Origin: an uncultured Eubacterium sp.
Lineage (GTDB): Bacteria; Bacillota; Clostridia; Lachnospirales; Lachnospiraceae
Assembly (NCBI GenBank): GCA_964620885.1
Contig: CAZUKR010000002.1
Location: forward strand, 3,621-67,620
Length of the DNA: 64,000 nt
Reading direction: 5' to 3'
Under the pieces are notes generated by a model. It saw only the letters and a list, made by a program, of their open reading frames with translations. It did no database searches and was not told the DNA's origin. Below are positions 1,227 through 49,872 of the stretch, piece after piece. Each line of letters opens with the position of its first letter. Position 1 is the first letter of the stretch. The position numbers and the translations under genes were made by a program.

Positions 1227-2876
1227 ATGAAAAAGGATAAAAAGAAGATATTAAAAATCGTAATTCCGGCGGCACTTGTAGTTGTAATCATAGGAACTGT
1301 AGTGGTAAGAAATATGGGAAGCGCAGGGGAAGCAATGGCGCAAGCTATGAAAGTAGATACCATAGCAGTGGGAACGGGAGATGTAACGGAAAATGTGGAA
1401 ACCAGCGGAACTGTAGTAAGTGGCCAGCAGAAAATATTCTTTTCGCCGGTAAATGCAATGGTAGAAGCGGCAGATTTTCAGCTGGGTGATATGGTAAAAG
1501 CCGGAGATAAACTGGTAACATTTAATCTGAAAGATTTAGAAGATCAGAATCAAAAAGCAGAACTGACAGTAAAAGCAAATGCTTTAGGGTATCAGGACAC
1601 TATAAATAAGTCTGCAGATGCGGCTCAGAAGCAGGCGGATGCCAGAGCGCAGGCAGCATCCCTGCAGCAGCAGGTAGATGCTAAAAAGCAGGAAGTGGAA
1701 AATCTTACGGCAGCTATTGCAGGAGATGCCCAGACACAGGCAGCGGCATTACAGCAGGAAAGTGACAGCGTGAACAAACAGATAGGGGAATTGCAGGCAC
1801 AGCAGGAGGAAGCCAAAAGGCTGCTGGAAGAGTTCGGGAAAGCTTATGACAAAGCACAGGCAGCCCAGCAGACAGCCCAGGTAAACTTTGATGCGGCTAC
1901 AGCAACAGCAGAAACGAATCCGGCAGGTGTAGACACTGCTTCCGCAGCATTAAAAAAAGCAAATAAAGAATTAAGTACTGCAAAAAGTGATTATGATGCC
2001 AAAAAAGTTCAGGCAGATAACCTGGATATACAGATAGCGGGACTTCAGGAATCTCTTGCTGGAATAAATGCAGGAGAAGGGGGAGCTTCTGAATTACAGC
2101 AAAATCTCACTGCGGCTCAGACAGAACTGGCAGAATTACAAGGAAAACTGGAAACCCAAAAGGCAATGGGAGAAGGAGAATCCGCAGCCCTTACCTCAGA
2201 AGCCAGAGGCCAGATGCAGACCACGAATAATCTGGCGGAACTAGAGAAGAAATCTCTGGCAGAGCTTATTGAGGAAGGGAAAAAAGGAATCACTGCAGAA
2301 TTTGCAGGAATTATCTCAGAGAGTCAGATTGTAGAAGGTGCAGCAGTATCACAGGGAATGCAGTTATTTACCCTTCAAAGTATTGATAATGTAGATGTAA
2401 GTGTATCATTATCCAAAAATGTGTATCAGAAAGTAAAAGAAGGGCAGAAAGCCACCATTACATTTGCAGGACAGACCTATGAAGGGACTGTCACAAGAAT
2501 CAGCCGTATTGCTGCCAGCGGAATGGGCGGAGGCAATGAAGCAGCATCTTCGGCAATTTCCGCAACGGTTCATATCGACAATCCGGATGACCATATTTTT
2601 CTTGGAGTAGATGCAAAGGTATCCGTTCATGCGGCAGAGGCGAAGAATGCAGTAACGCTTCCTACAGAAGCAGTAAATATTGGAAAAGAAGGCTCTTTTT
2701 GCTGGGTGTCTGAGGATGGAGTGCTGACAAAGCGCAGTATAGAAACAGGAGTAACTTCAGATGACACAATTGAAATTACCAAAGGGCTGAAAAAAGGGGA
2801 AAAAGTAATTATAGATCCGGGAAGCCATGAAGAAGGAGATCCGGTTACGATAACGGATGGACAGAAAAAAGAATAG
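1227..2876 (+). CDS. Efflux membrane-fusion/adaptor subunit (HlyD/MacA-like) with long coiled coil
   Basis: N-terminal TM anchor, barrel-sandwich hybrid segments, Ala/Gln-rich coiled coil, C-terminal IETGVTSDDTIEITKGL; between ABC ATPase and permease. Confidence 0.85.
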   Translation: MKKDKKKILKIVIPAALVVVIIGTVVVRNMGSAGEAMAQAMKVDTIAVGTGDVTENVETSGTVVSGQQKIFFSPVNAMVEAADFQLGDMVKAGDKLVTFNLKDLEDQNQKAELTVKANALGYQDTINKSADAAQKQADARAQAASLQQQVDAKKQEVENLTAAIAGDAQTQAAALQQESDSVNKQIGELQAQQEEAKRLLEEFGKAYDKAQAAQQTAQVNFDAATATAETNPAGVDTASAALKKANKELSTAKSDYDAKKVQADNLDIQIAGLQESLAGINAGEGGASELQQNLTAAQTELAELQGKLETQKAMGEGESAALTSEARGQMQTTNNLAELEKKSLAELIEEGKKGITAEFAGIISESQIVEGAAVSQGMQLFTLQSIDNVDVSVSLSKNVYQKVKEGQKATITFAGQTYEGTVTRISRIAASGMGGGNEAASSAISATVHIDNPDDHIFLGVDAKVSVHAAEAKNAVTLPTEAVNIGKEGSFCWVSEDGVLTKRSIETGVTSDDTIEITKGLKKGEKVIIDPGSHEEGDPVTITDGQKKE

Positions 2877-2886
2877 GGGTACTTAA

Positions 2887-4122
2887 ATGGGAAAGATATT
2901 AGAATATGTAAAAATGGCTTTAAAGAACATTACTGCCAACAAAGGACGTTCTTTTCTGACCATGTTAGGTATTATTATCGGAATTGCGTCTGTTATCATG
3001 ATAATGTCTGTAGGAGATGGAACGGCAGAAGCTATGAACTCAGAGGTAGCAGAAATAGGATCCGGACAGATTTATGTATACTGCAGTGAGGACGCCACAA
3101 ATGCTCAGGAATGGATTACAATAGAAGATATAGAGGCAATTAAAGCGAAGGTGAAGGGGGTAAGCGGAGCAAGTCCCGATGATGGATCCAATGGAGAGAC
3201 AATTACTGGAAAAGGAGAATTTGCCCTGTCCCTCAGCGGGGGAACAGAGGATTCCCAGAAGGCCCTGAATTATAATATAAAACGGGGAAATTATTATACA
3301 GCAATGGATGTGGAAGAAGGAAACCGTGTGTGTGTCATTACAGATGAAGATGCCAAGCGGCTCTTTGGTTCCGATGATGTAGTAGGAATGGATATAGATA
3401 TCACCATTGAAAATATTACCAACAGCTATCGTATTGTAGGGGTAACCCAACAGAAGGAAAATGGAGGCTTTGTCAGCTACACATATGAAGGGATGCCGGT
3501 AACTGTAAATGTGCCATATACATCCTTTCAGTCATACGGATGGGGAAGTGACGACTTTTATTCTCTGAATGTGTTTGCAGAAGATAAGGCGGATTCTCAA
3601 AAAGTAGCCCAAGATCTTATTCATCTGCTGGAATCCAGACATCAGAGTGCAGGGGAAAATTATTTCCAGATTCAGAGTTTTCAGGATATGGTTACGGAAT
3701 TGAATGACATGATGTCTATCGTAACTACATTTATTTCCTGTGTAGCGGCCATATCCTTGATTGTAGGAGGGATTGGTGTTATGAACATTATGCTGGTGTC
3801 CGTAACAGAGCGGACGCGGGAGATAGGAATTCGTAAGTCTTTAGGAGCAAAGACAACATCCATATTGATGCAGTTTTTGGCAGAAGCAGCAATTCTGACC
3901 ATTGTAGGAGGAATCATAGGGATTATTTTGGGATTGCTGGGGGCAGTGGGAATCTGCAGTCTTATGAGCAGTTCCATGGGAAGTACCATCCATGCTGGAA
4001 TAAAGACAAGTACCATATTAGGAGCCACATTGTTTTCTTGTGCAATCGGTGTTTTCTTCGGAATCTACCCGGCAAAGAAAGCAGCAAAATTAAGTCCAAT
4101 TGAAGCGTTAAGAAGAAATTAA
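2887..4122 (+). CDS. ABC transporter permease (MacB/FtsX family)
   Basis: RSFLTMLGIIIGIASVI and GGIGVMNIMLVSVTERTREIGIRKSLGA motifs. Confidence 0.95.
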   Translation: MGKILEYVKMALKNITANKGRSFLTMLGIIIGIASVIMIMSVGDGTAEAMNSEVAEIGSGQIYVYCSEDATNAQEWITIEDIEAIKAKVKGVSGASPDDGSNGETITGKGEFALSLSGGTEDSQKALNYNIKRGNYYTAMDVEEGNRVCVITDEDAKRLFGSDDVVGMDIDITIENITNSYRIVGVTQQKENGGFVSYTYEGMPVTVNVPYTSFQSYGWGSDDFYSLNVFAEDKADSQKVAQDLIHLLESRHQSAGENYFQIQSFQDMVTELNDMMSIVTTFISCVAAISLIVGGIGVMNIMLVSVTERTREIGIRKSLGAKTTSILMQFLAEAAILTIVGGIIGIILGLLGAVGICSLMSSSMGSTIHAGIKTSTILGATLFSCAIGVFFGIYPAKKAAKLSPIEALRRN

Positions 4123-4129
4123 TAATAAT

Positions 4130-4158
4130 TTGAAAGTTTCCCGGAAATACATTATAAT
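4130..4158 (+). promoter_or_regulatory. Sigma-A-type promoter for the srtB-cobB-DUF951 unit
   Basis: TTGAAA-17 bp-TATAAT. Confidence 0.6.
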
Positions 4159-4198
4159 GTTCTAAAAAGAACAGGTAGAACCGGGAGACTTTTATTTT

Positions 4199-4963
4199 AT
4201 GAAAAAAGGAAAAAAAGATATTAAAAATATTGTGATATTTTTGGCAGCCCTTATGATTTTCGCTTATGCTCTCATACGACTGGGGGCTATTTTTCTGGAA
4301 TATGGAAAGGGTCAGAACAGCTACGAGAAATTGAAGGATCTTACCAGTGAAACAGATGTTGGAAAGGGCAAAGAGAAGCCGGAGAATTTTGCTGTGGACT
4401 TTGCAGAATTAAAAAAAATAAATCCCGATATTACAGGGTGGATTCGTTTTGAACATATGGATATTAGTTACCCCATTGTACAGGGAAGGGATAATGACTA
4501 TTATTTGACCCACTCTTTTTATAAGGAAGAGATAAAATGCGGAAGTATTTTTATAGAAGCAGAAAATGCATCGGACTTTAGTGATGATAACACGTTTATT
4601 TATGGTCATAATATGAAGGACAAGTCTATGTTTGCAAAATTAAATACCTTTCAGGATGAACAGATATATCGGGAAAACCCCGAATTTCTAATTTATACGG
4701 AAGATGAAATTTATCGGTACAGTATTTTTTCCTGTTATCAGGCAGACGTATCATGGGACTCCTTTATTTACCAGTTTGCAGATGAGGAGCAGTACGGGGA
4801 ATGGCTTCAGAAGATGAAGGAACGAAGCAGATATGATACAGGAGTGACACCTCAAAAAGAGCAGAAAACAGTGACCTTAATGACTTGTACAGCAGCAGGA
4901 GATGAATATCGCTTTCTTGTACATGGAGTATTGACGGAAACCATAAAACAGAAGACAAAGTAG
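4199..4963 (+). CDS. srtB: Class B sortase
   Basis: N-terminal TM, IYGHNM motif, catalytic TLMTC and downstream Arg (YRFLVHG). Confidence 0.9.
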   Translation: MKKGKKDIKNIVIFLAALMIFAYALIRLGAIFLEYGKGQNSYEKLKDLTSETDVGKGKEKPENFAVDFAELKKINPDITGWIRFEHMDISYPIVQGRDNDYYLTHSFYKEEIKCGSIFIEAENASDFSDDNTFIYGHNMKDKSMFAKLNTFQDEQIYRENPEFLIYTEDEIYRYSIFSCYQADVSWDSFIYQFADEEQYGEWLQKMKERSRYDTGVTPQKEQKTVTLMTCTAAGDEYRFLVHGVLTETIKQKTK

Positions 4964-4979
4964 AAAGGCTGGGAAAAGT

Positions 4980-5723
4980 ATGGAAAAAACAGATAGAGTA
5001 CAGCAGTTTCTTAAGATAGTGGAGCAAAGCGATAATATTGTATTTTTTGGAGGTGCGGGCGTATCTACGGAAAGTGGAATACCGGATTTTCGCAGTGTGG
5101 ATGGATTGTATTGTCAGCAATATGAGTATCCCCCCGAGATGATATTGAGCCATACTTTTTACCGTAAGAACCCAGAGGAATTTTATCGTTTCTATCGGAA
5201 TAAAATGCTTTGTCTGGAGGCGGAGCCTAATATGGCACACGAAAAACTGGCAGAGCTGGAGCAGGCAGGAAAGGTAAAGGCAGTAATTACCCAGAATATC
5301 GATGGACTCCATCAGAAGGCAGGCAGTAAAAAGGTGCTGGAACTTCATGGAAGCGTCCACCGGAATTATTGTGAATCCTGTCATGCATTTTATGATGCAG
5401 AATATATGTTACACCATGAGGGTGTTCCAAAATGCGAAGCATGCGGCGGAGACATTAAACCGGACGTGGTATTATATGAAGAAGGTCTGGATAACCGTAC
5501 CATGCAGGAAGCGATATATTATATCGGTCAGGCGGATGTACTGATTATTGGAGGAACCTCCCTTGCGGTATATCCGGCGGCAGGTTTGATTGATTATTAC
5601 CAGGGAGATAAGCTGATTCTGGTGAATAAGACGGCCACCGCAAAAGACAGTAGTGCAGGCTTGGTGCTTCAGGAAGCAATTGGAGAATTGTTTGGAAAGA
5701 TTGAGAATAAAGGGAGGAAATAG
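4980..5723 (+). CDS. cobB: NAD-dependent protein deacylase (sirtuin)
   Basis: GAGVSTESGIPDFRS, TQNIDGLHQKAG, ELHGS, two CxxC Zn motifs. Confidence 0.95.
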   Translation: MEKTDRVQQFLKIVEQSDNIVFFGGAGVSTESGIPDFRSVDGLYCQQYEYPPEMILSHTFYRKNPEEFYRFYRNKMLCLEAEPNMAHEKLAELEQAGKVKAVITQNIDGLHQKAGSKKVLELHGSVHRNYCESCHAFYDAEYMLHHEGVPKCEACGGDIKPDVVLYEEGLDNRTMQEAIYYIGQADVLIIGGTSLAVYPAAGLIDYYQGDKLILVNKTATAKDSSAGLVLQEAIGELFGKIENKGRK

Positions 5724-5724
5724 G

Positions 5725-5913
5725 ATGTCGATACAATATGAAGTAGGAGATATTGTAAGATTGAAGAAACAGCATCCCTGCGGCAGCAGTGAATGGGAAG
5801 TGCTCCGGGTAGGCGCAGATTTTCGTTTGAAATGTTTGGGATGCCAGCATCAGATTATGATAGCAAGGAAGCTGGTAGAAAAGAATACAAAAGAAATTCG
5901 GAAAAGTTCTTGA
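5725..5913 (+). CDS. DUF951 family small protein
   Basis: YEVGDIVRLKKQHPCGSSEWEVLRVGADFRLKC; start moved to the ATG at 5725 after GGAGG. Confidence 0.85.
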   Translation: MSIQYEVGDIVRLKKQHPCGSSEWEVLRVGADFRLKCLGCQHQIMIARKLVEKNTKEIRKSS

Positions 5914-5969
5914 AAAGTGTGCGGAGGTATGATAACATATTATTTCGTGATATATTAATAAGTAATTTA

Positions 5970-6016
5970 TCCTTGCTCCATGCTAAGGCAGGGGGCCAAA
6001 AGACCAAAAGGAGGTA
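5970..6016 (+). promoter_or_regulatory. Putative S6:S18 ribosomal leader (autoregulatory RNA)
   Basis: Hairpin CCTTGC...GCAGGG with internal CC, just 5' of the rpsF SD; such leaders are known upstream of rpsF in Firmicutes. Confidence 0.4.
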
Positions 6017-6024
6017 AGACAAGC

Positions 6025-6315
6025 ATGAACAAATATGAATTAGCACTTGTTGTTAATGCAAAAGTCGAGGATGAAGTAAGAACCGAAACCGTAGAAAAGG
6101 CAAAAGAATTTATTGCACGTTTCGGTGGAACAGTAACCAACGTAGATGAATGGGGTAAGAAAAGATTAGCTTACGAAATTCTGAAGGTTAGAGAAGGTTA
6201 CTACTACTTTATTCAGTTCGATGCAGAAGGAGATTGTCCGGCGGAAGTTGAAAAACGCATTCGTATTATGGATAATGTACTTCGTTTCTTATGTGTTAGA
6301 CAAGACGAAGCATAG
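6025..6315 (+). CDS. rpsF: 30S ribosomal protein S6
   Basis: MNKYEL...EWGKKRLAYEI...GYYYFIQF; start at 6025 after GGAGGT. Confidence 0.97.
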   Translation: MNKYELALVVNAKVEDEVRTETVEKAKEFIARFGGTVTNVDEWGKKRLAYEILKVREGYYYFIQFDAEGDCPAEVEKRIRIMDNVLRFLCVRQDEA

Positions 6316-7051: not shown

Positions 7052-7060
7052 ATTTGAACA

Positions 7061-7100
7061 AAAGAACTTATTACAATGTACTGTAATAGGTTCTTTTTTT
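7061..7100 (+). terminator. Rho-independent terminator of rpsF-ssb-rpsR
   Basis: AAGAACTTATTACA / TGTAATAGGTTCTT stem plus T-tract. Confidence 0.85.
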
Positions 7101-7170
7101 ATATTATAGGAAAGACCATGTTACACATAAAGTATGAAAGTTTGTAATTTCCTAAAATATAAAACGCTCC
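7097..7170. repeat. Repeat family A, truncated copy (AT-rich inverted-repeat hairpin module only)
   Basis: Near-identical to 23918-23983 (ATTATAGGAAAGACCATGTT...TTTCCTA..ATATAAAACGCTCC); breaks off right after ACGCTCC. Confidence 0.85.
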
Positions 7171-23077: not shown

Positions 23078-23878
23078 ATGAAAATTGAAAAAGTAAATGA
23101 AAATCAGATTCGCTGCACTCTTACCAAAGAAGATTTGATAGACCGTCAGATTAAATTGAGTGAGCTTGCATACGGAACGGAGAAGGCAAAAACTCTTTTT
23201 CGGGATATGATGCAGCAGGCAGCATATGAATGTGGATTTGAAGCAGAAGATATACCGCTGATGATTGAAGCAATTCCATTATCAGCAGATACTATAATTT
23301 TAATCATAACCAAGGTGGAATATCCAGATGAGCTGGACACCAGATTTTCCCAATTTACTTCAGGAGATTCTCCAGAGGAGGCAGAAGAAGCCTTTGGCAG
23401 CGAAGAGAATGAGAAGATTCATGAAGTTGCCGGAGCCGATGATATACTGGATTTGTTCCGTAAGATTCAGGCAGAGCACAAGAAGGCAGAAAGTCTTAAG
23501 AAGGAAAGTAAGTTTGTTCCTTTGGAAAAAGCAATCAATGGAGAAAAACCGGCACAACAGTCGGAAGAAGATACTGTGTTGGTGGACATAACCAAACTGT
23601 TTGTGTTTGATAAACTGGATGAGGTAAGCCGTCTGGCAAGTGTACTCAAAGGATTTTATAACGGATGTAATGTGCTTTATAAGAACAATCTGACACGGAA
23701 GTATTATCTGGTGGTCAGCAAGAGCCGGCATACACCGGAAGAATTCAACAAAGTATGCAATATTTTGTCGGAATATGCACATCAGGAAAAATATTCTACT
23801 GCAATCAGGGCATATTTTGAGGAACATTATGATATCATAATAAAGGAAAATGCATTGCAGATACTGAGCGAAATATAA
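23078..23878 (+). CDS. mecA: ClpC adaptor protein MecA
   Basis: MKIEKVNENQIRCTLTKEDL...LMIEAIP...LSEY...EH. Confidence 0.9.
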   Translation: MKIEKVNENQIRCTLTKEDLIDRQIKLSELAYGTEKAKTLFRDMMQQAAYECGFEAEDIPLMIEAIPLSADTIILIITKVEYPDELDTRFSQFTSGDSPEEAEEAFGSEENEKIHEVAGADDILDLFRKIQAEHKKAESLKKESKFVPLEKAINGEKPAQQSEEDTVLVDITKLFVFDKLDEVSRLASVLKGFYNGCNVLYKNNLTRKYYLVVSKSRHTPEEFNKVCNILSEYAHQEKYSTAIRAYFEEHYDIIIKENALQILSEI

Positions 23879-23880
23879 AG

Positions 23881-23914
23881 AGAACCCCTTGTGCTCATGC
23901 ATAAGGGGGTTCTT
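23881..23914 (+). terminator. Terminator after mecA
   Basis: AGAACCCCTT / AAGGGGGTTCT stem. Confidence 0.75.
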
Positions 23915-24103
23915 ACATTATAGGAAAGACCATGTTGCACTAAAGTATGAAAGTGTGTAATTTCCTATAATATAAAACGCTCCGCGTAGGATGCACGCAC
24001 GCGCCAGAGGAAGAAGTCACAGAGGCGATGGCGCGCGGCGCAGCAAAGCGCCTTCTCCCTCAAGATTGAGGGCAGGGGAGCTGAGCGTGTCGAAGACACT
24101 TTG
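23909..24103. repeat. Repeat family A, full-length single copy (AT hairpin plus GC-rich multi-stem module)
   Basis: Colinear with the 40423-40880 units: ACGCTCCGC..GGATGCAC.C.CGCGCC...GGCGCGCGGCGCAGCAAAG...GTGTCGAAGACACTTTG. Confidence 0.85.
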
Positions 24104-24138
24104 TTCTATTAGCCGAAGGAAATACATAGGAGGACGTC

Positions 24139-25968
24139 ATGCCAGATATCGACAGACAAAAACCTGGGCAGAACTTGGGAAGAGACAGAAGAGAAGATAT
24201 TTCCAGCAGAAGACCTGTCAGACGCAGAAAGCCCAAAAAGAGTAATACATCCATATTTGTAGCAGCAATTTTTATTACAATTGTAATATTGATTGCGGTC
24301 ATCAGTATGCTGATAAAGAAGTACAGCCCAAATAAAGAGCGGGTAGATGTGAACAGCTATTATAATGTCCAGAAGGAAGAGGACATGGCGCTTATTTTGG
24401 ATAATAAGCGGATGGAAGATATAGCAAAATACTGGGACGGGCATGTGTATGTAGAATATCAGGGAGTACGTAATAATCTGAACCAGCGCTTTTACTGGGA
24501 TGCCAATGAAAATATACTTCGTTATGTAACACCCTCGGATGTCATTACAGTAAATGCAGGCGAGCAGAGTTACATGGTTACGAAAACCAGTGAAAATGTT
24601 GACTATGTCATTGTCAGGGTAGATGGTGATAAGATGTATCTGGCACTGGACTTTATCCAAAAATATACCAATCTTGACTTTGAAATAAATAAGAAACCCA
24701 ATCGGGTAATGGTTACCAGCCAGTGGGGAAAGATAAAGAAAGCTCAAATCAAAAGGAATACGGAAATCCGTCAGAAAGGCGGTATTAAGAGCCCTATTGT
24801 GGCAGATATAGAAAAAGACACTAAAGTGACCGTTCTGGAGAGCGGAGACAACTGGAGTAAAGTCTGTACCCAGGATGGTATGATCGGGTATCTTAAAAAT
24901 AATAAACTAGGTGAGATAAAGGCAGAGACTATTTCCAGAGATTTTGAAGAGCCTGTGTTCAATCATCAGTTAAAGGATAAGACCATTAGTTTGGGCTGGC
25001 ATCAAGTAACCAATCAGGCAGGCAATGACCGTGTAGCAAAGGTATTGGAGTCTACCAAAGGAATCAATGTATTGTCACCCACCTGGTTTTATCTGAACGA
25101 TAATAACGGAAATATTTATTCCCTGGCAAACCGCAGTTATGTGGATTATTGTCATCAGAATGGTGTAGAGGTGTGGGCACTGATCAGTAATTTGGAAAAC
25201 CCTGATGTGGATACTACCCATGTATTGACCCATACATCTACTAGAGATTATCTGGTAAACCAGATTATTGCAGCCGCCATTGAATATGATTTGGATGGAA
25301 TAAATCTGGATTTTGAAGCATTAGATGGACAGGTAGGAGATGCTTATATCCAATTTATACGAGAATTATCAATTAAGTGTGAAAATAACAATATTGTATT
25401 GTCTGTAGATAATTATGTACCGTCTTCCTATACGGCTTTTTATAACCGCAGTGAGCAGGCTGTATTTGCAGACTACGTCATTGTTATGGCATATGACGAA
25501 CATACCAAAGTATCGGAAGATATAGGTCCGGTGGCTTCCATTGGATTTGTAAAAGAAGGAGTAAAAAACACATTGAAGGAAGTTCCGGCGGAACAGATAA
25601 TTATGGGAATTCCTTTTTATACCAGAGTATGGGAGTTGACACCAAAAGAAGATGCCGGAGAAGATGTAGAATCTGCGGCGGAAGATTATCTGCCATACAC
25701 CTTTACCTGTGTGGAAGAGGGGATGCAGACGGTAGAAAACCGCTATACTGTTAACGGCGCACAGGCAGCGTGGGATGAAGAAAGCGGCCAAAATTATGTA
25801 GAATATGAAAATGGCGGAAAAACCTACAAAATCTGGATTGAAAATGAAGCGTCCTTAGAAGTGAAGCTGAAAGTCATGAAAGAAAATTCCCTGGCAGGAG
25901 CAGCTTATTGGAAATTAGGAATTGAGCGGCAATCTGCATGGGACACCATAATAAAATATGTAAACTGA
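24139..25968 (+). CDS. Glycoside hydrolase family 18 with SH3-like domain (spore cortex YaaH/YdhD-like)
   Basis: DGINLDFE catalytic motif, VIVMAYDEH, MGIPFYTR, AAYW; N-terminal TM. Confidence 0.85.
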   Translation: MPDIDRQKPGQNLGRDRREDISSRRPVRRRKPKKSNTSIFVAAIFITIVILIAVISMLIKKYSPNKERVDVNSYYNVQKEEDMALILDNKRMEDIAKYWDGHVYVEYQGVRNNLNQRFYWDANENILRYVTPSDVITVNAGEQSYMVTKTSENVDYVIVRVDGDKMYLALDFIQKYTNLDFEINKKPNRVMVTSQWGKIKKAQIKRNTEIRQKGGIKSPIVADIEKDTKVTVLESGDNWSKVCTQDGMIGYLKNNKLGEIKAETISRDFEEPVFNHQLKDKTISLGWHQVTNQAGNDRVAKVLESTKGINVLSPTWFYLNDNNGNIYSLANRSYVDYCHQNGVEVWALISNLENPDVDTTHVLTHTSTRDYLVNQIIAAAIEYDLDGINLDFEALDGQVGDAYIQFIRELSIKCENNNIVLSVDNYVPSSYTAFYNRSEQAVFADYVIVMAYDEHTKVSEDIGPVASIGFVKEGVKNTLKEVPAEQIIMGIPFYTRVWELTPKEDAGEDVESAAEDYLPYTFTCVEEGMQTVENRYTVNGAQAAWDEESGQNYVEYENGGKTYKIWIENEASLEVKLKVMKENSLAGAAYWKLGIERQSAWDTIIKYVN

Positions 25969-39978: not shown

Positions 39979-40389
39979 ATGGCAGAAGAACACAAAATTT
40001 TCCAGTTAGAAATTATAACGCCTGACCGTGTTTTTTACGAAGGAGAAGCTTCTATGGTGGAATTTACATCTGTAAATGGAGAAATGGGAGTATATAAGAG
40101 CCATATTCCTCTTACTACCGTATTAGCCCCTGGAATCGTAACAATTACAGAGGCAGATGGAAAAAAAGAAGCGGCGATTCATGCAGGATTTGTTGAGGTT
40201 CTGCCAGAGAAGGTAACCTTTTTGGCAGAGATAGCAGAATGGCCGGAAGAAATTGATGTAGATCGTGCAGAGAAAGCCCGAAGCCGCGCTGAGGAACGAA
40301 TTCATAGCCATGCAACAGAAGTTGATGTGGCTCGTGCAGAAATTGCATTGAAAAAGGCATTGATTCGTATTGACATAAAAGGATTATAA
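39979..40389 (+). CDS. atpC: F1 subunit epsilon
   Basis: LEIITPDRVF, GFVEV, IDVDRAEKA. Confidence 0.95.
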   Translation: MAEEHKIFQLEIITPDRVFYEGEASMVEFTSVNGEMGVYKSHIPLTTVLAPGIVTITEADGKKEAAIHAGFVEVLPEKVTFLAEIAEWPEEIDVDRAEKARSRAEERIHSHATEVDVARAEIALKKALIRIDIKGL

Positions 40390-40396
40390 GATTTGA

Positions 40397-40427
40397 AAGA
40401 CTCTATCATGTGATGTGATAGGGTCTT
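40397..40427 (+). terminator. Terminator of the atp operon
   Basis: AAGACTCTATCA / TGATAGGGTCTT stem. Confidence 0.8.
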
Positions 40428-40880
40428 ATTTTATAGGAAAATTTCATTACCTTGAAATATAAAAGTAATGTGAATTCCTATAAAATAAGACGGCTCCGCA
40501 TGGGATGCACACGCGCGCCCAAGGAAGAGTGTCGCAAAAGCGACGGCGCGCGGCGCAGCAAAGTGGCTTCTCCGTCAAGGATAGTGGAAAGTGTAGCGTA
40601 GAGTGTCGAAGGCGCTTTGATTTTAAATTATAGGAAAATTTCTTATATAAAATAAGACGCTCCGCATGGGATGCACACGCGCGCCCGGGGAAGAGAGTCG
40701 CAAAAGCGACAGCGCGCGGCGCAGCAAAGTGGCTTTTCCTTCAAGGATAGTGGAAAGTGTGGAGTAGAGTGTCAAAGACACTTTGATTTTAAATTATATG
40801 AATTCCTATAAAATAAGACGCTCCGCATGGGATGCACACGCGCGCCTAGGGAGGAGTGTCGCAAAAGCGACAGCACTTTG
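40423..40880. repeat. Repeat family A tandem array: two full GC-rich units and one truncated unit, period about 160-166 bp
   Basis: Units start at TATAAAATAAGAC 40480, 40646 and 40807; preceded by a perfect 17-bp inverted repeat 40423-40439 / 40475-40491. Confidence 0.92.
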
Positions 40881-41003
40881 CGTAAAATATCATGGACAAA
40901 ATAAGGCGGTTGCAATATAATAGCATGGGCAGAAAGAGGAAATAGTTCATTATAGTAGTGTGCAGAGGTAAAAGTCTATGTTTTCATGATATAACGGAGG
41001 AAT

Positions 41004-41417
41004 GTGAAAATGAAAAAGAAAAAAATTATAATAGTAACACTAGTGGTTTTAGTAATTTTATTTTTTGTGGTAAGGGCAATTATTGGATTGTTTGCTTCTC
41101 AATATAATTCAAATGATATCAGTAATTATCCAAACATTACCATAGACAGAGGCAGTGAAAAGCAGTATGTCTGCGATTCTTCCGGATATAAGGTCTATAC
41201 GATTGAGTTGAGTGAAGTATATTTTAAAACGAAAGATGCTGAAACAATAGAGCTGTATGATGCATTAACAACGGGAAAAATAACGATTGAAGATATGACT
41301 AATGTATGTAAGCAACAGAAAAGAAGTGATGATATTAAGGTATATACAGGGGAAAATTATCAAATCATTTTTGAAGGGGATCAATGCCTAATAGCTCCGC
41401 TGGATTACCAAATATAA
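41004..41417 (+). CDS. Hypothetical membrane-anchored protein
   Basis: GGAGG RBS, basic N-terminus plus TM, no recognised motif. Confidence 0.7.
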   Translation: MKMKKKKIIIVTLVVLVILFFVVRAIIGLFASQYNSNDISNYPNITIDRGSEKQYVCDSSGYKVYTIELSEVYFKTKDAETIELYDALTTGKITIEDMTNVCKQQKRSDDIKVYTGENYQIIFEGDQCLIAPLDYQI

Positions 41418-48524: not shown

Positions 48525-48786
48525 TGTATTTGTTTTCATGCACAGGTTGTATTTTGTGGAAAACCGTGATACGATAAACTTGGTACGTGGATAGAAGACT
48601 CTTACCACAAACCTTAACAATAAAAGCAGACCAGACCAAGAAGGAGAACCTGAAGGGAAAGGTGCAGATATATAGTGGAAACCGGCAGAAGAATTCTGGC
48701 GGTGCAGATTGTATAAATATGCCCTGTGCCTTTTTGGTACAGGGATTTCTTTGTTTTATTATCAGAAAGCCTTGTTACGTTAAAGT

Positions 48787-49872
48787 ATGAAAGAGGAGGT
48801 GAGAGCGGAAACAGCCGCTTTGTATATGATATTGCAATTAATAGATAAGCTGGAGCAGCAGCATTACCTTACCAAAGAAGAATGGACAGCCCTCATTGAA
48901 GGCCGAAACCAGGAAATAGCCGCCTATTTATTTGAAAAGGCAAGATACTGGCAGCACAAATATTTTGGGAATAAAGTCTATACAAGAGGGTTAATTGAGT
49001 TTACTAATTATTGTAAAAATGACTGCTATTACTGCGGAATCCGCAGGAGCAACCAGAATGCCCAAAGATATCGTCTCACTCAGGAGCAGATATTGGAATG
49101 CTGCGGCATTGGACATGAACTTGGATTTAGAACCTTTGTATTGCAGGGGGGAGAAGACGGATGGTTTACTCAGGATAAGCTGGAGCACATTGTAAGAGAG
49201 ATAAAAGAGAAATATTCAGACTGTGCCCTGACCCTCTCCATGGGTGAACGGAGCACTGAGAGTTATAAAAGACTTTTTGAAGCAGGAGCAGACCGTTATC
49301 TGCTGCGGCATGAAACAGCAGACAGCCGGCATTACCAGAAACTTCATCCTGCCGAACTTACCGCTGAAAAAAGGCAGCAGTGCCTGAAAGAGCTGAAAGA
49401 AATCGGTTATCAGACGGGAACCGGATTTATGGTAGGCAGTCCCGGACAGACACCGGAACAGCTTGCAGAAGATATGATGTTTATTCATGAACTGCAGCCC
49501 CACATGGTAGGGATAGGTCCCTTTGTTCCCCATCATGAGACACCCTTTGGAGCAGAGCTGGGAGGAACCGTAGAACTGACCTTGTTTATGATTGGTTTGC
49601 TGCGGGTTATGCAGCCCAAACTACTATTGCCATCCACCACGGCTCTCGGAACCATCGACCCTCTGGGGAGAGAAAAAGGAATACAGGCAGGGGCCAATGT
49701 AGTAATGCCCAATCTGTCCCCTACTTCTGTACGAAAGAAATATGAACTGTATGATAATAAAATCTGTACAGGGGATGAGGCGGCGGAATGCCGTGTGTGC
49801 TTAAACCGCCGGATGGAAGGTATAGGATATGAACTGGTAACGAACCGGGGAGATTATCCAGATGGTATTTAG
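48787..49872 (+). CDS. hydE: [FeFe]-hydrogenase H-cluster maturase HydE (radical SAM)
   Basis: RGLIEFTNYCKNDCYYCGIR, YLLRHET, GIGPFVPH, YELYDNKIC. Confidence 0.9.
   Translation: MKEEVRAETAALYMILQLIDKLEQQHYLTKEEWTALIEGRNQEIAAYLFEKARYWQHKYFGNKVYTRGLIEFTNYCKNDCYYCGIRRSNQNAQRYRLTQEQILECCGIGHELGFRTFVLQGGEDGWFTQDKLEHIVREIKEKYSDCALTLSMGERSTESYKRLFEAGADRYLLRHETADSRHYQKLHPAELTAEKRQQCLKELKEIGYQTGTGFMVGSPGQTPEQLAEDMMFIHELQPHMVGIGPFVPHHETPFGAELGGTVELTLFMIGLLRVMQPKLLLPSTTALGTIDPLGREKGIQAGANVVMPNLSPTSVRKKYELYDNKICTGDEAAECRVCLNRRMEGIGYELVTNRGDYPDGI

Follow-up and report, generated by a model that had tools for sequence, protein, structure and literature searches.

A tandem repeat behind the atp operon of an uncultured Eubacterium is probably a series of miniature IS91-type elements that target terminators

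Directly behind the atp operon of an uncultured Eubacterium sp. of the Lachnospiraceae, two full units and one short unit of a repeat lie head to tail at positions 40423-40880 of the 64,000-nucleotide stretch that we analysed (the window; contig CAZUKR010000002.1 of assembly GCA_964620885.1, positions 3,621 to 67,620). Each unit contains an AT-rich hairpin (H) followed by a GC-rich module (M). We propose that this array probably consists of three gene-less, non-autonomous miniatures of the IS91 rolling-circle type, which use terminators as their targets. In this proposal, the H-M unit is a known kind of selfish DNA with an unusual target. The original prediction, made from the letters of the window, had included a mobile element acting through single-stranded DNA (ssDNA) hairpins, and this part is supported by the dispersal of the unit across the window and many genomes and by two termini that are both shared with a transposase-bearing element.

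The predicted tandem arrangement of H and M directly behind the atp terminator was confirmed by three analyses. Tandem Repeats Finder reported a single array (40472-40874, period 166, 2.5 copies, 88% matches), a repeat search found 144-nt copies at 40493-40636 and 40659-40802 with 92% identity and a third copy of 68 nt at 40807-40874, and the 26-mer CTCCGCATGGGATGCACACGCGCGCC occurs three times in the window against 0 expected from shuffles. The repeat search also recovered the perfect 17-nt inverted repeat that had been noticed at 40423-40439 and 40475-40491, with 35 nt separating its arms. These are the arms of the first hairpin, H1, which contains the core motif TTATAGGAAA from 40431 and has an RNA fold z-score of -5.7. 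The epsilon gene of the atp operon ends at 40389, and the T-rich tail of the operon's terminator (about 40426-40434) overlaps the left arm of H1. In unit A1, the boundaries of which have a precision of about ±8 nt, the first part of M (M1) contains helix P1 (40507-40519 and 40545-40556) and an inner hairpin P2 (40531-40544), and the second part (M2, about 40557-40619) carries the terminal hairpin GTGTCGAAGGCGC at 40603-40615, followed by TTTGATTTTA. The corresponding terminal hairpin of unit A2 is GTGTCAAAGACAC (40769-40781), and a terminator scan shows that each full unit is closed by a terminator-like hairpin with a T-rich tail (40599-40619 and 40765-40785).

Unit A3 consists of its 5' part through the inner hairpin, with the 5' arm of M1 and the hairpin GTCGCAAAAGCGAC (40858-40871) joined to ..GCACTTTG at a junction ..GCAC-ACTTTG. 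This unit had been taken for a truncated copy; it is instead a recurrent short form, which is also found at three other loci (L150, L152 and L104) and elsewhere with different inner hairpins. Alignment of the junctions gives one long AT-rich hairpin, of which junctions 2 and 3 each lack a different piece, as had been described. The array looks old, since its units, all of one subtype, have diverged to 92-94% likeness, two of the three H hairpins have lost a part, and the ends are TTTGATTTTA rather than TTTGTTC. An open reading frame (ORF) is open in copies 1 and 2 and differs at seven residues (11 nucleotide differences by our count). These differences and frame-shifting indels throughout the family rule out a small protein encoded by the unit, in agreement with the predicted absence of an ORF; no frame is conserved. 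A CRISPR array was also rightly dismissed, as the whole 166-nt period is repeated without unique spacers.

The position of the array was compared with relatives from a collection of species representatives, of which the closest are Lachnospiraceae, many from mouse gut, with an AtpC identity of at most 87%. Three of these relatives (L016, L017 and L019) lack the array and carry a conserved promoter, AAAATATCATGTACAAAA..TATAATATAAT, 50-200 nt past the atp terminator. The array lies wholly between the native atp terminator and this conserved downstream promoter, which marks the right edge of the insertion. These comparisons indicate that the atp array is an insertion between terminator and promoter. 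No direct repeat was found at the array flanks relative to the array-less relatives, though those intergenic regions have diverged. Contigs of the same species break off either within the array or precisely 30 nt into a stretch that the copies share, which is how an assembler with k=31 behaves at a repeat, and one such contig (L001) has one unit fewer (1.5 copies).

Three further copies or fragments are present in the window (loci B, C and D in Table 1; the array is locus A). All four loci are on the + strand and directly follow an intrinsic terminator, and the core TTATAGGAAA occurs five times in the window against 0.3 expected. Locus B, first located at about 23961-24110 (79% identity) with a profile built from the two full array units, has the canonical ends CA-TTATAGGAAAG ... 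GTGTCGAAGACAC-TTTGTTC. It is placed between the mecA terminator upstream and the ribosome-binding site of a GH18/SH3 gene downstream (assigned by Pfam of the flanking genes). Locus C is directly 3' of a terminator at 7060-7097. Locus D is preceded by a terminator and abutted by the ribosome-binding site of the next gene, and it is truncated at the same point as copies at L209, L124 and L182.

The repeat extends well beyond this genome. The H pattern TTATAGGAAA-N20-48-TTTCCTATAA matches at least 116 loci, mostly in Lachnospiraceae records, and spacer types of 50 and 54 nt predominate among the H matches listed. When oriented by their asymmetric spacer, H copies are preceded by an intrinsic terminator hairpin and T run or by the end of the previous unit. 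Iterated nhmmer searches starting from the GC module of the window gave 68 M hits, 45 of them full length, and the resulting family model recognises the three full units of the window with E values of 1e-16 to 1e-20 and the short third unit with 7e-06. H almost always precedes M. Across the family, M1 is made of ATGCGCAC, helix P1, a purine-rich internal loop AAGAGG, the inner hairpin P2 and then CGGCGC, while M2 is made of GCAAAGTG, a hairpin CCCCTCA/TGAGGGG, and the terminal GC-rich hairpin with TTTGTTC. Some H copies carry other types of cargo instead of M. The atp tandem array is typical of the family, because H-M-H-M arrays are common (H pairs of the same orientation are spaced about 110-185 nt apart), and the cargo modules of adjacent units in other genomes are often of different types.

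Exact and degenerate patterns of the GC module found nothing in genome contigs or viral contigs and four hits in metagenome contigs, all chance matches of about 21 nt. Exact 20-26-mers failed because family members are too diverged, and a profile search on loci fetched through the AT hairpin worked. A blastn search of the unit against plasmid and phage collections gave no match, and 14 matches of the H pattern in viral contigs were judged to be chance, as all their spacers are unrelated. In the searchable literature, the coverage of which is incomplete, we found no description of the repeat family and its sequences, nor of terminator targeting by IS91-type elements.

Examination of the genes bracketed by repeats located a transposase that links the family to IS91. 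In the chromosome of Lachnospiraceae JLR.KK009 (L132), the ORF 2105-3253 on the - strand matches Y2_Tnp (E 2e-40) and Zn_Tnp_IS91 (E 2.5e-24). The 1587-bp IS91-family element is 99.8% identical between L132 and another locus, L190, over a range from CT-TTATAGGAAAATTCG (CT-TTATAGGAAAA..) to ..GTGGGCTTGCCCACTTTGTTC, and the two insertions have unrelated flanks (GTTC versus TTTA on the left) and no target duplication. The last 57 nt of this element are an M2 module (positions 65-120 of the M model, E 1e-12). Both termini are common to the H-M unit and to IS91-family elements of about 1.58 kb, namely the start, TTATAGGAAA, and the last ~55 nt, in which CCCTCA..TGAGGG is followed by the hairpin GTGTCGAAGACAC and then by either GTTC or a run of T. 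In Lachnospiraceae bacterium 3-1 (L133), a diverged copy with an internal deletion carries a hairpin of the window type, and its ter end matches the end of locus B at 47 of 51 bases (aligned by eye).

The window-type hairpin GTGTCGAAGACACTTTKTT is found at at least 118 loci in many Lachnospiraceae genera and a few other Clostridia. Among the listed loci, 56 have upstream sequence, and in 27 of these an IS91-like transposase gene starts 70-83 nt upstream in antisense orientation, with 63-92% amino-acid identity; a further 62 listed loci are at contig starts. In eight full-length elements of about 1.4-1.6 kb from different genomes, (A/G)CT-TTATAGGAAA comes right after a terminator hairpin and T run. 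The search for an HUH transposase that the original prediction had proposed therefore did find a partner, located in other Lachnospiraceae, but this partner is a Y2 enzyme of the IS91 family and not a Y1 enzyme of the IS200/IS605 or RAYT type. L132 also contains a second, different IS91-family element (3507-6190), which has a tyrosine recombinase (Phage_integrase) gene beside its Y2 transposase, begins with TTATAGGGTGTC.. behind the T run of a unit, and is closed by a hairpin and then TTTTTTATC, with another H next to it.

The termini of the units can be compared with those described for the IS91 family. Its members have functionally distinct ori and ter ends, both with subterminal palindromes, and the site of cleavage at ter, like the target beside ori, is marked by a tetranucleotide of the GTTC type; they make no target-site duplication, one-ended transposition occurs, and the transposase acts in trans on mini-elements with ends of about 80-90 bp (PMC13181058). 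Miniature IS801 derivatives that retain the ori end transpose in vivo (PMC3189936). Locus B has a ter end of the IS91 type, with a single GC-rich subterminal palindrome next to GTTC; the array units retain the terminal hairpin but end with TTTGATTTTA, without a GTTC-type end. On the ori side, the units start NN-TTATAGGAAA, as the eight full-length elements do, and H supplies nested palindromes. The tetranucleotide in front of the element has the form xTTx (TTTA in 32/80, GTTC in 12/80 and TTTG in 5/80 cases), and it is CTTA at loci A and B and TTTA at locus C. The oriIS consensus of ISCR/IS91 elements may contain TTCCTATA, which was not used as evidence.

These features suggest the following mechanism. 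A unit would start with an ori-type terminus, NN-TTATAGGAAA.., embedded in the long AT-rich hairpin H, and would end with M2 as a ter-type terminus, which comprises the CCCTCA/TGAGGG hairpin, the GTGTC-NAA-GACAC hairpin and a T-rich run or GTTC. A Y2 HUH transposase supplied in trans would nick the ori end, one strand would be displaced up to the ter end, and the displaced strand would be inserted in a single orientation directly after a hairpin and T-rich tract, that is, an intrinsic terminator. The ter end itself resembles a terminator site, and therefore copies could insert behind copies, including in mixed arrays and where a unit is followed by a full insertion sequence (IS). New copies would in this way land behind old ones and produce tandem arrays. 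The ori end is retained in the copies that stop short (H only, half of H, or a short M), as may be expected of a polar process that starts there, and the forms with only the H end (loci C and D, and L130, L209, L124 and L182) fit such a process. The atp array itself may have grown by serial insertion rather than by duplication, concatemer formation or unequal recombination. We also considered whether orientation is set by the direction of replication. The local GC skew is negative at 17 of 106 loci, and the five of these 17 that were examined upstream all still follow a co-oriented terminator, so this explanation was rejected.

The flanking bases hint at a possible way in which terminators are chosen. 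The base 3 nt left of TTATAGG is C in one and A in the other of two insertions of the same 99.8%-identical IS, and it must therefore be flank DNA. In H-M units this flank base covaries with the internal base after the right arm of H (46/80 Watson-Crick pairs versus 25.6 expected; 0/5000 shuffles). The H stem extends on the left into the terminator T tract and on the right into an A-rich run. We tentatively raise the idea, which we regard as possible and no stronger, that the A-rich segment after the right arm of H (GAT/GAG/GAC + AAAA) serves as a DNA guide that pairs with the terminator T tract and xTTN. By analogy with IS608, which reads its target, such pairing may steer a Y2 HUH transposase to intrinsic terminators. 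Besides pairing of guide and target, the covariation between flank and internal base could reflect repair inside the hairpin or joint inheritance of the two bases in arrays.

Several points weigh against the interpretation of the array as IS91-type miniatures. A tblastn search found no IS91-type transposase in the units or in the 64-kb window, and a cognate enzyme of this species is hypothetical. The autonomous copies examined lack M1 and most of H, and what they share with the units is limited to about 12 nt of the ori end and about 55 nt of the ter end. The array units end with CTTTGATTTTA, the canonical form being CTTTGTTC, and two of their H hairpins are partly deleted; with such ends and deletions, the array copies may no longer be mobile. 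Mobility is deduced from distribution only, with no pair of empty and filled sites within one species, and the 1.5-copy array of the same-species contig L001 may stem from genuine variation or from assembly. Finally, the covariation in M1, described below, could equally reflect an RNA function.

Covariation was assessed on an alignment of 38 sequences (A2) with helices specified by us, and with slid partners and 500 shuffles as controls. In the M helices, 86% of the cells are paired against 34-49% in the slid controls, and 101 cells are changed on both sides against 19-27 in the controls, a value that none of the 500 shuffles reaches. Significant covariation, a check proposed with the original prediction, is therefore present, and the helices covary strongly. 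Compensatory changes are found in P1 (GCAC/GTGC, GTGC/GCAC and GCGC/GCGC), in P2 (GTCGC/GCGAC, ATTGC/GCAAT, GTCAC/GTGAC and CAGC/GCTG) and in the terminal hairpin (GTGGGC/GCCCAC, GCGGAC/GTCCGC and GTGTC/GACAC). A long-range helix CAAAGTG../..CACTTTG, which competes with the terminal hairpin, is also supported. Most of the predicted stems hold in the family, since GCGCGCC/GGCGCGC, GTCGC-AAAA-GCGAC, GTGTC-NAA-GRCRC and CAAAG..CTTTG covary; CTT(C/T)TCC/GGAAAG is not supported, and the helix of the family at this place is CCCCTCA/TGAGGGG, intact in locus B but degenerate in the copies of the array. We note that among columns 67, 110 and 121 of alignment A2 (40564, 40603 and 40614 in unit A1), a single column has two covarying partners, a pattern that supports both the terminal hairpin and a long-range helix that would sequester it, in a switch-like arrangement.

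Such covariation would fit units that are primarily structured noncoding RNAs, for example small RNAs (sRNAs) derived from 3' untranslated regions (UTRs) or read-through, or terminator or insulator modules, under RNA-level selection with mobility as an incidental property. Several helices covary strongly, including M1, which lies outside the transposon ends; the internal loop and flanks contain conserved unpaired motifs (AAGAGG, ATGCGCAC and CGGCGC); a terminator-like + strand hairpin ends each unit; the three-way covariation fits alternative terminator and long-range helices; and type-54 H folds better on the + strand in 26/29 copies. However, strong covariation is equally expected for ssDNA hairpins that are recognised by an HUH enzyme, and the RNA-specific evidence is negative. 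The original prediction had argued that differences between copies keep the pairing through G-U; this fails family-wide, as the M helices contain G-T and A-C cells in about equal numbers, without strand bias, and therefore no RNA-specific signal of the + strand is seen. On the + strand, the fold z-scores of the M modules of the window reach only -1.0 to -2.7, and folding of the - strand is about as good. Rfam, with its Clostridiales and Lachnospiraceae motifs, RAGATH, HEARO and other families, gave 0 matches in the whole window at gathering thresholds, and at relaxed thresholds only chance-level microRNA-like hits on the AT hairpin in the array region (E >= 0.056). A gathering scan of 140 kb of related loci with many copies returned only an FMN riboswitch and a tRNA, so that the suggested identity with a known Clostridiales Rfam repeat motif is not borne out. 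A promoter scan found no sigma-70-type promoter in any unit, and independent sRNA genes with their own promoters were rejected on this ground. The family is also high-copy, mosaic and assembly-breaking, with many truncated forms and with termini shared with a transposon. We therefore consider a primarily RNA-level explanation unlikely, and the structured-RNA part of the original prediction received no positive support. M1 may be a selected structured cargo, of RNA or DNA, rather than filler; nothing that we found marks the H-M unit as a new RNA gene, and an RNA role could be a secondary property.

Other mobile or recombining systems explain part of the observations. Like REP/BIME-type or PATE-type palindromes mobilised by a Y1 HUH enzyme (RAYT or the TnpA of IS200/IS605), the units are extragenic, hairpin-rich, mosaic, arrayed and strand-specific, and they lie past stop codons and terminators. 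But the transposase-bearing elements with the same termini carry Y2_Tnp and Zn_Tnp_IS91 rather than Y1_Tnp, the units are 160-200 nt and not 20-40 nt long, and no repeat-flanked RAYT-type or Y1 gene was noticed in the inter-repeat intervals examined, in a search that was not exhaustive; mobilisation by a Y1 enzyme is accordingly very improbable. We give an equally low probability to the view that the array formed by local tandem duplication (slippage or unequal crossing-over) of one inserted or native sequence, with no ongoing transposition. The 92-94% likeness of three units of one subtype, the deletion scars in the junction hairpins and the missing unit in the same-species contig L001, as recombination between units predicts, would all agree with it. 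Duplication nevertheless covers only the growth of the array, and the unit itself belongs to a dispersed, transposon-linked family. Moreover, neighbouring units elsewhere often differ in cargo type, or a full IS follows a unit, and such arrangements cannot be produced by duplication. The least probable explanation, to which we attach hardly any weight, is that of SINE-like retroelements or of cassettes integrated at H by a site-specific recombinase (integron/attC-like). Its appeal comes from the polar truncations that always keep the terminator-proximal end, from the complementarity between the A-rich segment past H and the terminator T tract, from the inverted arms of H flanking an asymmetric centre, and from the tyrosine recombinase on one IS91-like element of L132. 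Yet no reverse transcriptase or integron integrase was seen beside the copies examined, arrays usually end in M and not in H, unlike att-site cassettes, and the shared termini together with a Y2 transposase explain the polarity without either mechanism. A classical MITE (a miniature transposable element with inverted repeats) was ruled out, as the two ends differ (TTATAGGAAA.. versus ..hairpin-TTTGTTC) and no target duplication is seen. The unit is neither a classical MITE with target-site duplication nor a REP.

As IS91-type miniatures, the H-M units can be placed among known systems. They resemble IS91, IS801 and IS1294 in that the partner encodes Y2_Tnp and Zn_Tnp_IS91, and the IS91 family in having two unlike ends, with a ter end formed by a GC-rich subterminal hairpin next to GTTC (the transposase-sense strand starts GAAC), and an ori end beside an xTTx tetranucleotide, without target duplication. 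The retention of the ori end in short derivatives recalls mini-IS801 (PMC13181058, PMC3189936). Unlike the IS91 family, the H-M lineage inserts past a terminator hairpin and T run rather than at a bare GTTC or CTTG, its ter end is itself terminator-like, and its miniatures are high-copy, modular (H + M1 + M2, or other cargo) and commonly head-to-tail. A further difference is that the autonomous copies seen lack M1 and most of H.

Insertion behind terminators has a parallel in class C group II introns, which reportedly insert in one orientation just after intrinsic-terminator stem-loops; the H-M units differ from these in having no ribozyme domains, reverse transcriptase or Rfam intron hit and in being only 160-200 nt long. 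With REP/BIME-RAYT and the PATEs of IS200/IS605 they share extragenic mosaic arrays of hairpins and a presumed action of an HUH enzyme on ssDNA, and they differ by the Y2 rather than Y1 enzyme, by much longer units and by IS91-type termini. The Helitrons of eukaryotes are rolling-circle HUH elements that make no target duplication, carry a GC-rich hairpin in 3' subterminal position and occur in tandem arrays and as abundant non-autonomous copies, traits that the H-M units would share. The enzyme of Helitrons is a Rep-helicase fusion; the H-M units, in contrast, are bacterial, have a Y2_Tnp/Zn_Tnp_IS91 partner and target a terminator T tract instead of an A/T dinucleotide (A|T). BOX, RUP and Correia-type repeats are likewise modular, structured, intergenic, high-copy and assembly-breaking. 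These repeats either follow the MITE pattern, bounded by terminal inverted repeats and target duplications, or have an unknown mobiliser, whereas the ends of the H-M units are functionally distinct and match a rolling-circle IS.

Table 1 Features of the array and of the other copies in the window (positions are those of the window).
Feature	Position	Strand	Basis
Native intrinsic terminator of the atp operon (stem-loop)	40397-40427	+	Terminator scan; homologous to the atp terminators of L016, L017 and L019
H1, AT-rich hairpin at the ori-like end of unit A1	40423-40491	+	Inverted-repeat pair, motif search, H-family homology
Unit A1, complete H+M, about 197 nt	40429-40625	+	nhmmer with family M model, E 1.1e-16; alignment A2
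Unit A2, 166 nt, H partly deleted (40626-40658), M complete	40626-40791	+	nhmmer, E 3.4e-17
Unit A3, short form, H partly deleted	40792-40880	+	nhmmer, E 7.4e-06 to M model positions 1-52
Native sigma-70-type promoter TGGACA-17-TATAAT, not part of the element	40893-40921	+	Promoter scan, 11/12 matches; conserved in relatives
Locus B, single complete H+M unit	23916-24106	+	nhmmer, E 3.2e-28 with array units and 9.8e-21 with family model
Locus C, H only and first 8 nt of M (AACGCTCC)	7102-7170	+	nhmmer, E 2.1e-20
Locus D, truncated H, left arm and inner part (TTATCAGAAAGCCTTGTTACGTTAAAGTATGAAAG)	48757-48793	+	nhmmer, E 4.5e-4

Further observations concern the surroundings and contents of the repeats. 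Between the mecA terminator and the ribosome-binding site (23916-24139), locus B leaves almost no free sequence, and the ATG of the GH18/SH3 gene is at 24139. The promoter scan predicts no sigma-70-like site around locus B (23800-24200); the gene may therefore depend on read-through past two terminator-like hairpins, or on an unrecognised promoter. Independent assemblies of the same species (L092-L096 and L002-L004) break at identical bases, 30 nt inside the repeat, and the breaks at locus B imply that at least one further copy elsewhere in the species shares the 30-mer CACTAAAGTATGAAAGTGTGTAATTTCCTA. On the right side of the atp array, the promoter at 40893-40921 precedes a response-regulator gene (MIKIGICDDEK..) in L016, L017 and L019 (about 3480-3700), which by our reading is putatively of the LytTR type. 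In the window (40893-41417), the same promoter is followed by small membrane ORFs that are unrelated and match nothing in Pfam, and by this comparison the gene content downstream is predicted to have been replaced relative to these relatives.

Other H variants are found behind the atp terminators of relatives, at L008 3440-3700 (Eubacterium sp. 14-2), L009 3463-3600 and L010 3463-3560, for example with arms TTCTATGGAA/TTCCATAGAA and with a different cargo module in each. Across relatives, it appears that insertions have struck the atp terminator more than once or that one occupant has given way to another. A 27-nt mini-module, GGGTCTGCCCCAGCGAAGCGAGGGTAC, is nested in M1 between ATGCGCA and CTCGCAC (L195 about 3600, L132 1630-1660 and L100 about 3480) and looks like a still smaller insertion within the repeat. 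A separate miniature family of about 84 nt, with the start ATAGGAAAG and the end GTGTCGAAGACAC, is also tandem and was seen in L314 6941-7110 (a Kineothrix metagenome-assembled genome) as well as in L248, L281, L288 and L275.

By this analysis, a GC-rich tandem repeat that had looked odd is accounted for as debris of transposons, and many intergenic repeats and contig breaks in genomes of gut Lachnospiraceae receive a named cause that annotators can use. The results point to a lineage of the IS91 family for which intrinsic terminators are the insertion sites and the own end of which mimics a terminator. If guide pairing is true, the target choice of a Y2 HUH transposase would be open to direct tests and perhaps to programming. 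To the host, the arrays bring extra terminator-like hairpins behind operons, and locus B may affect the expression of the next gene by read-through.

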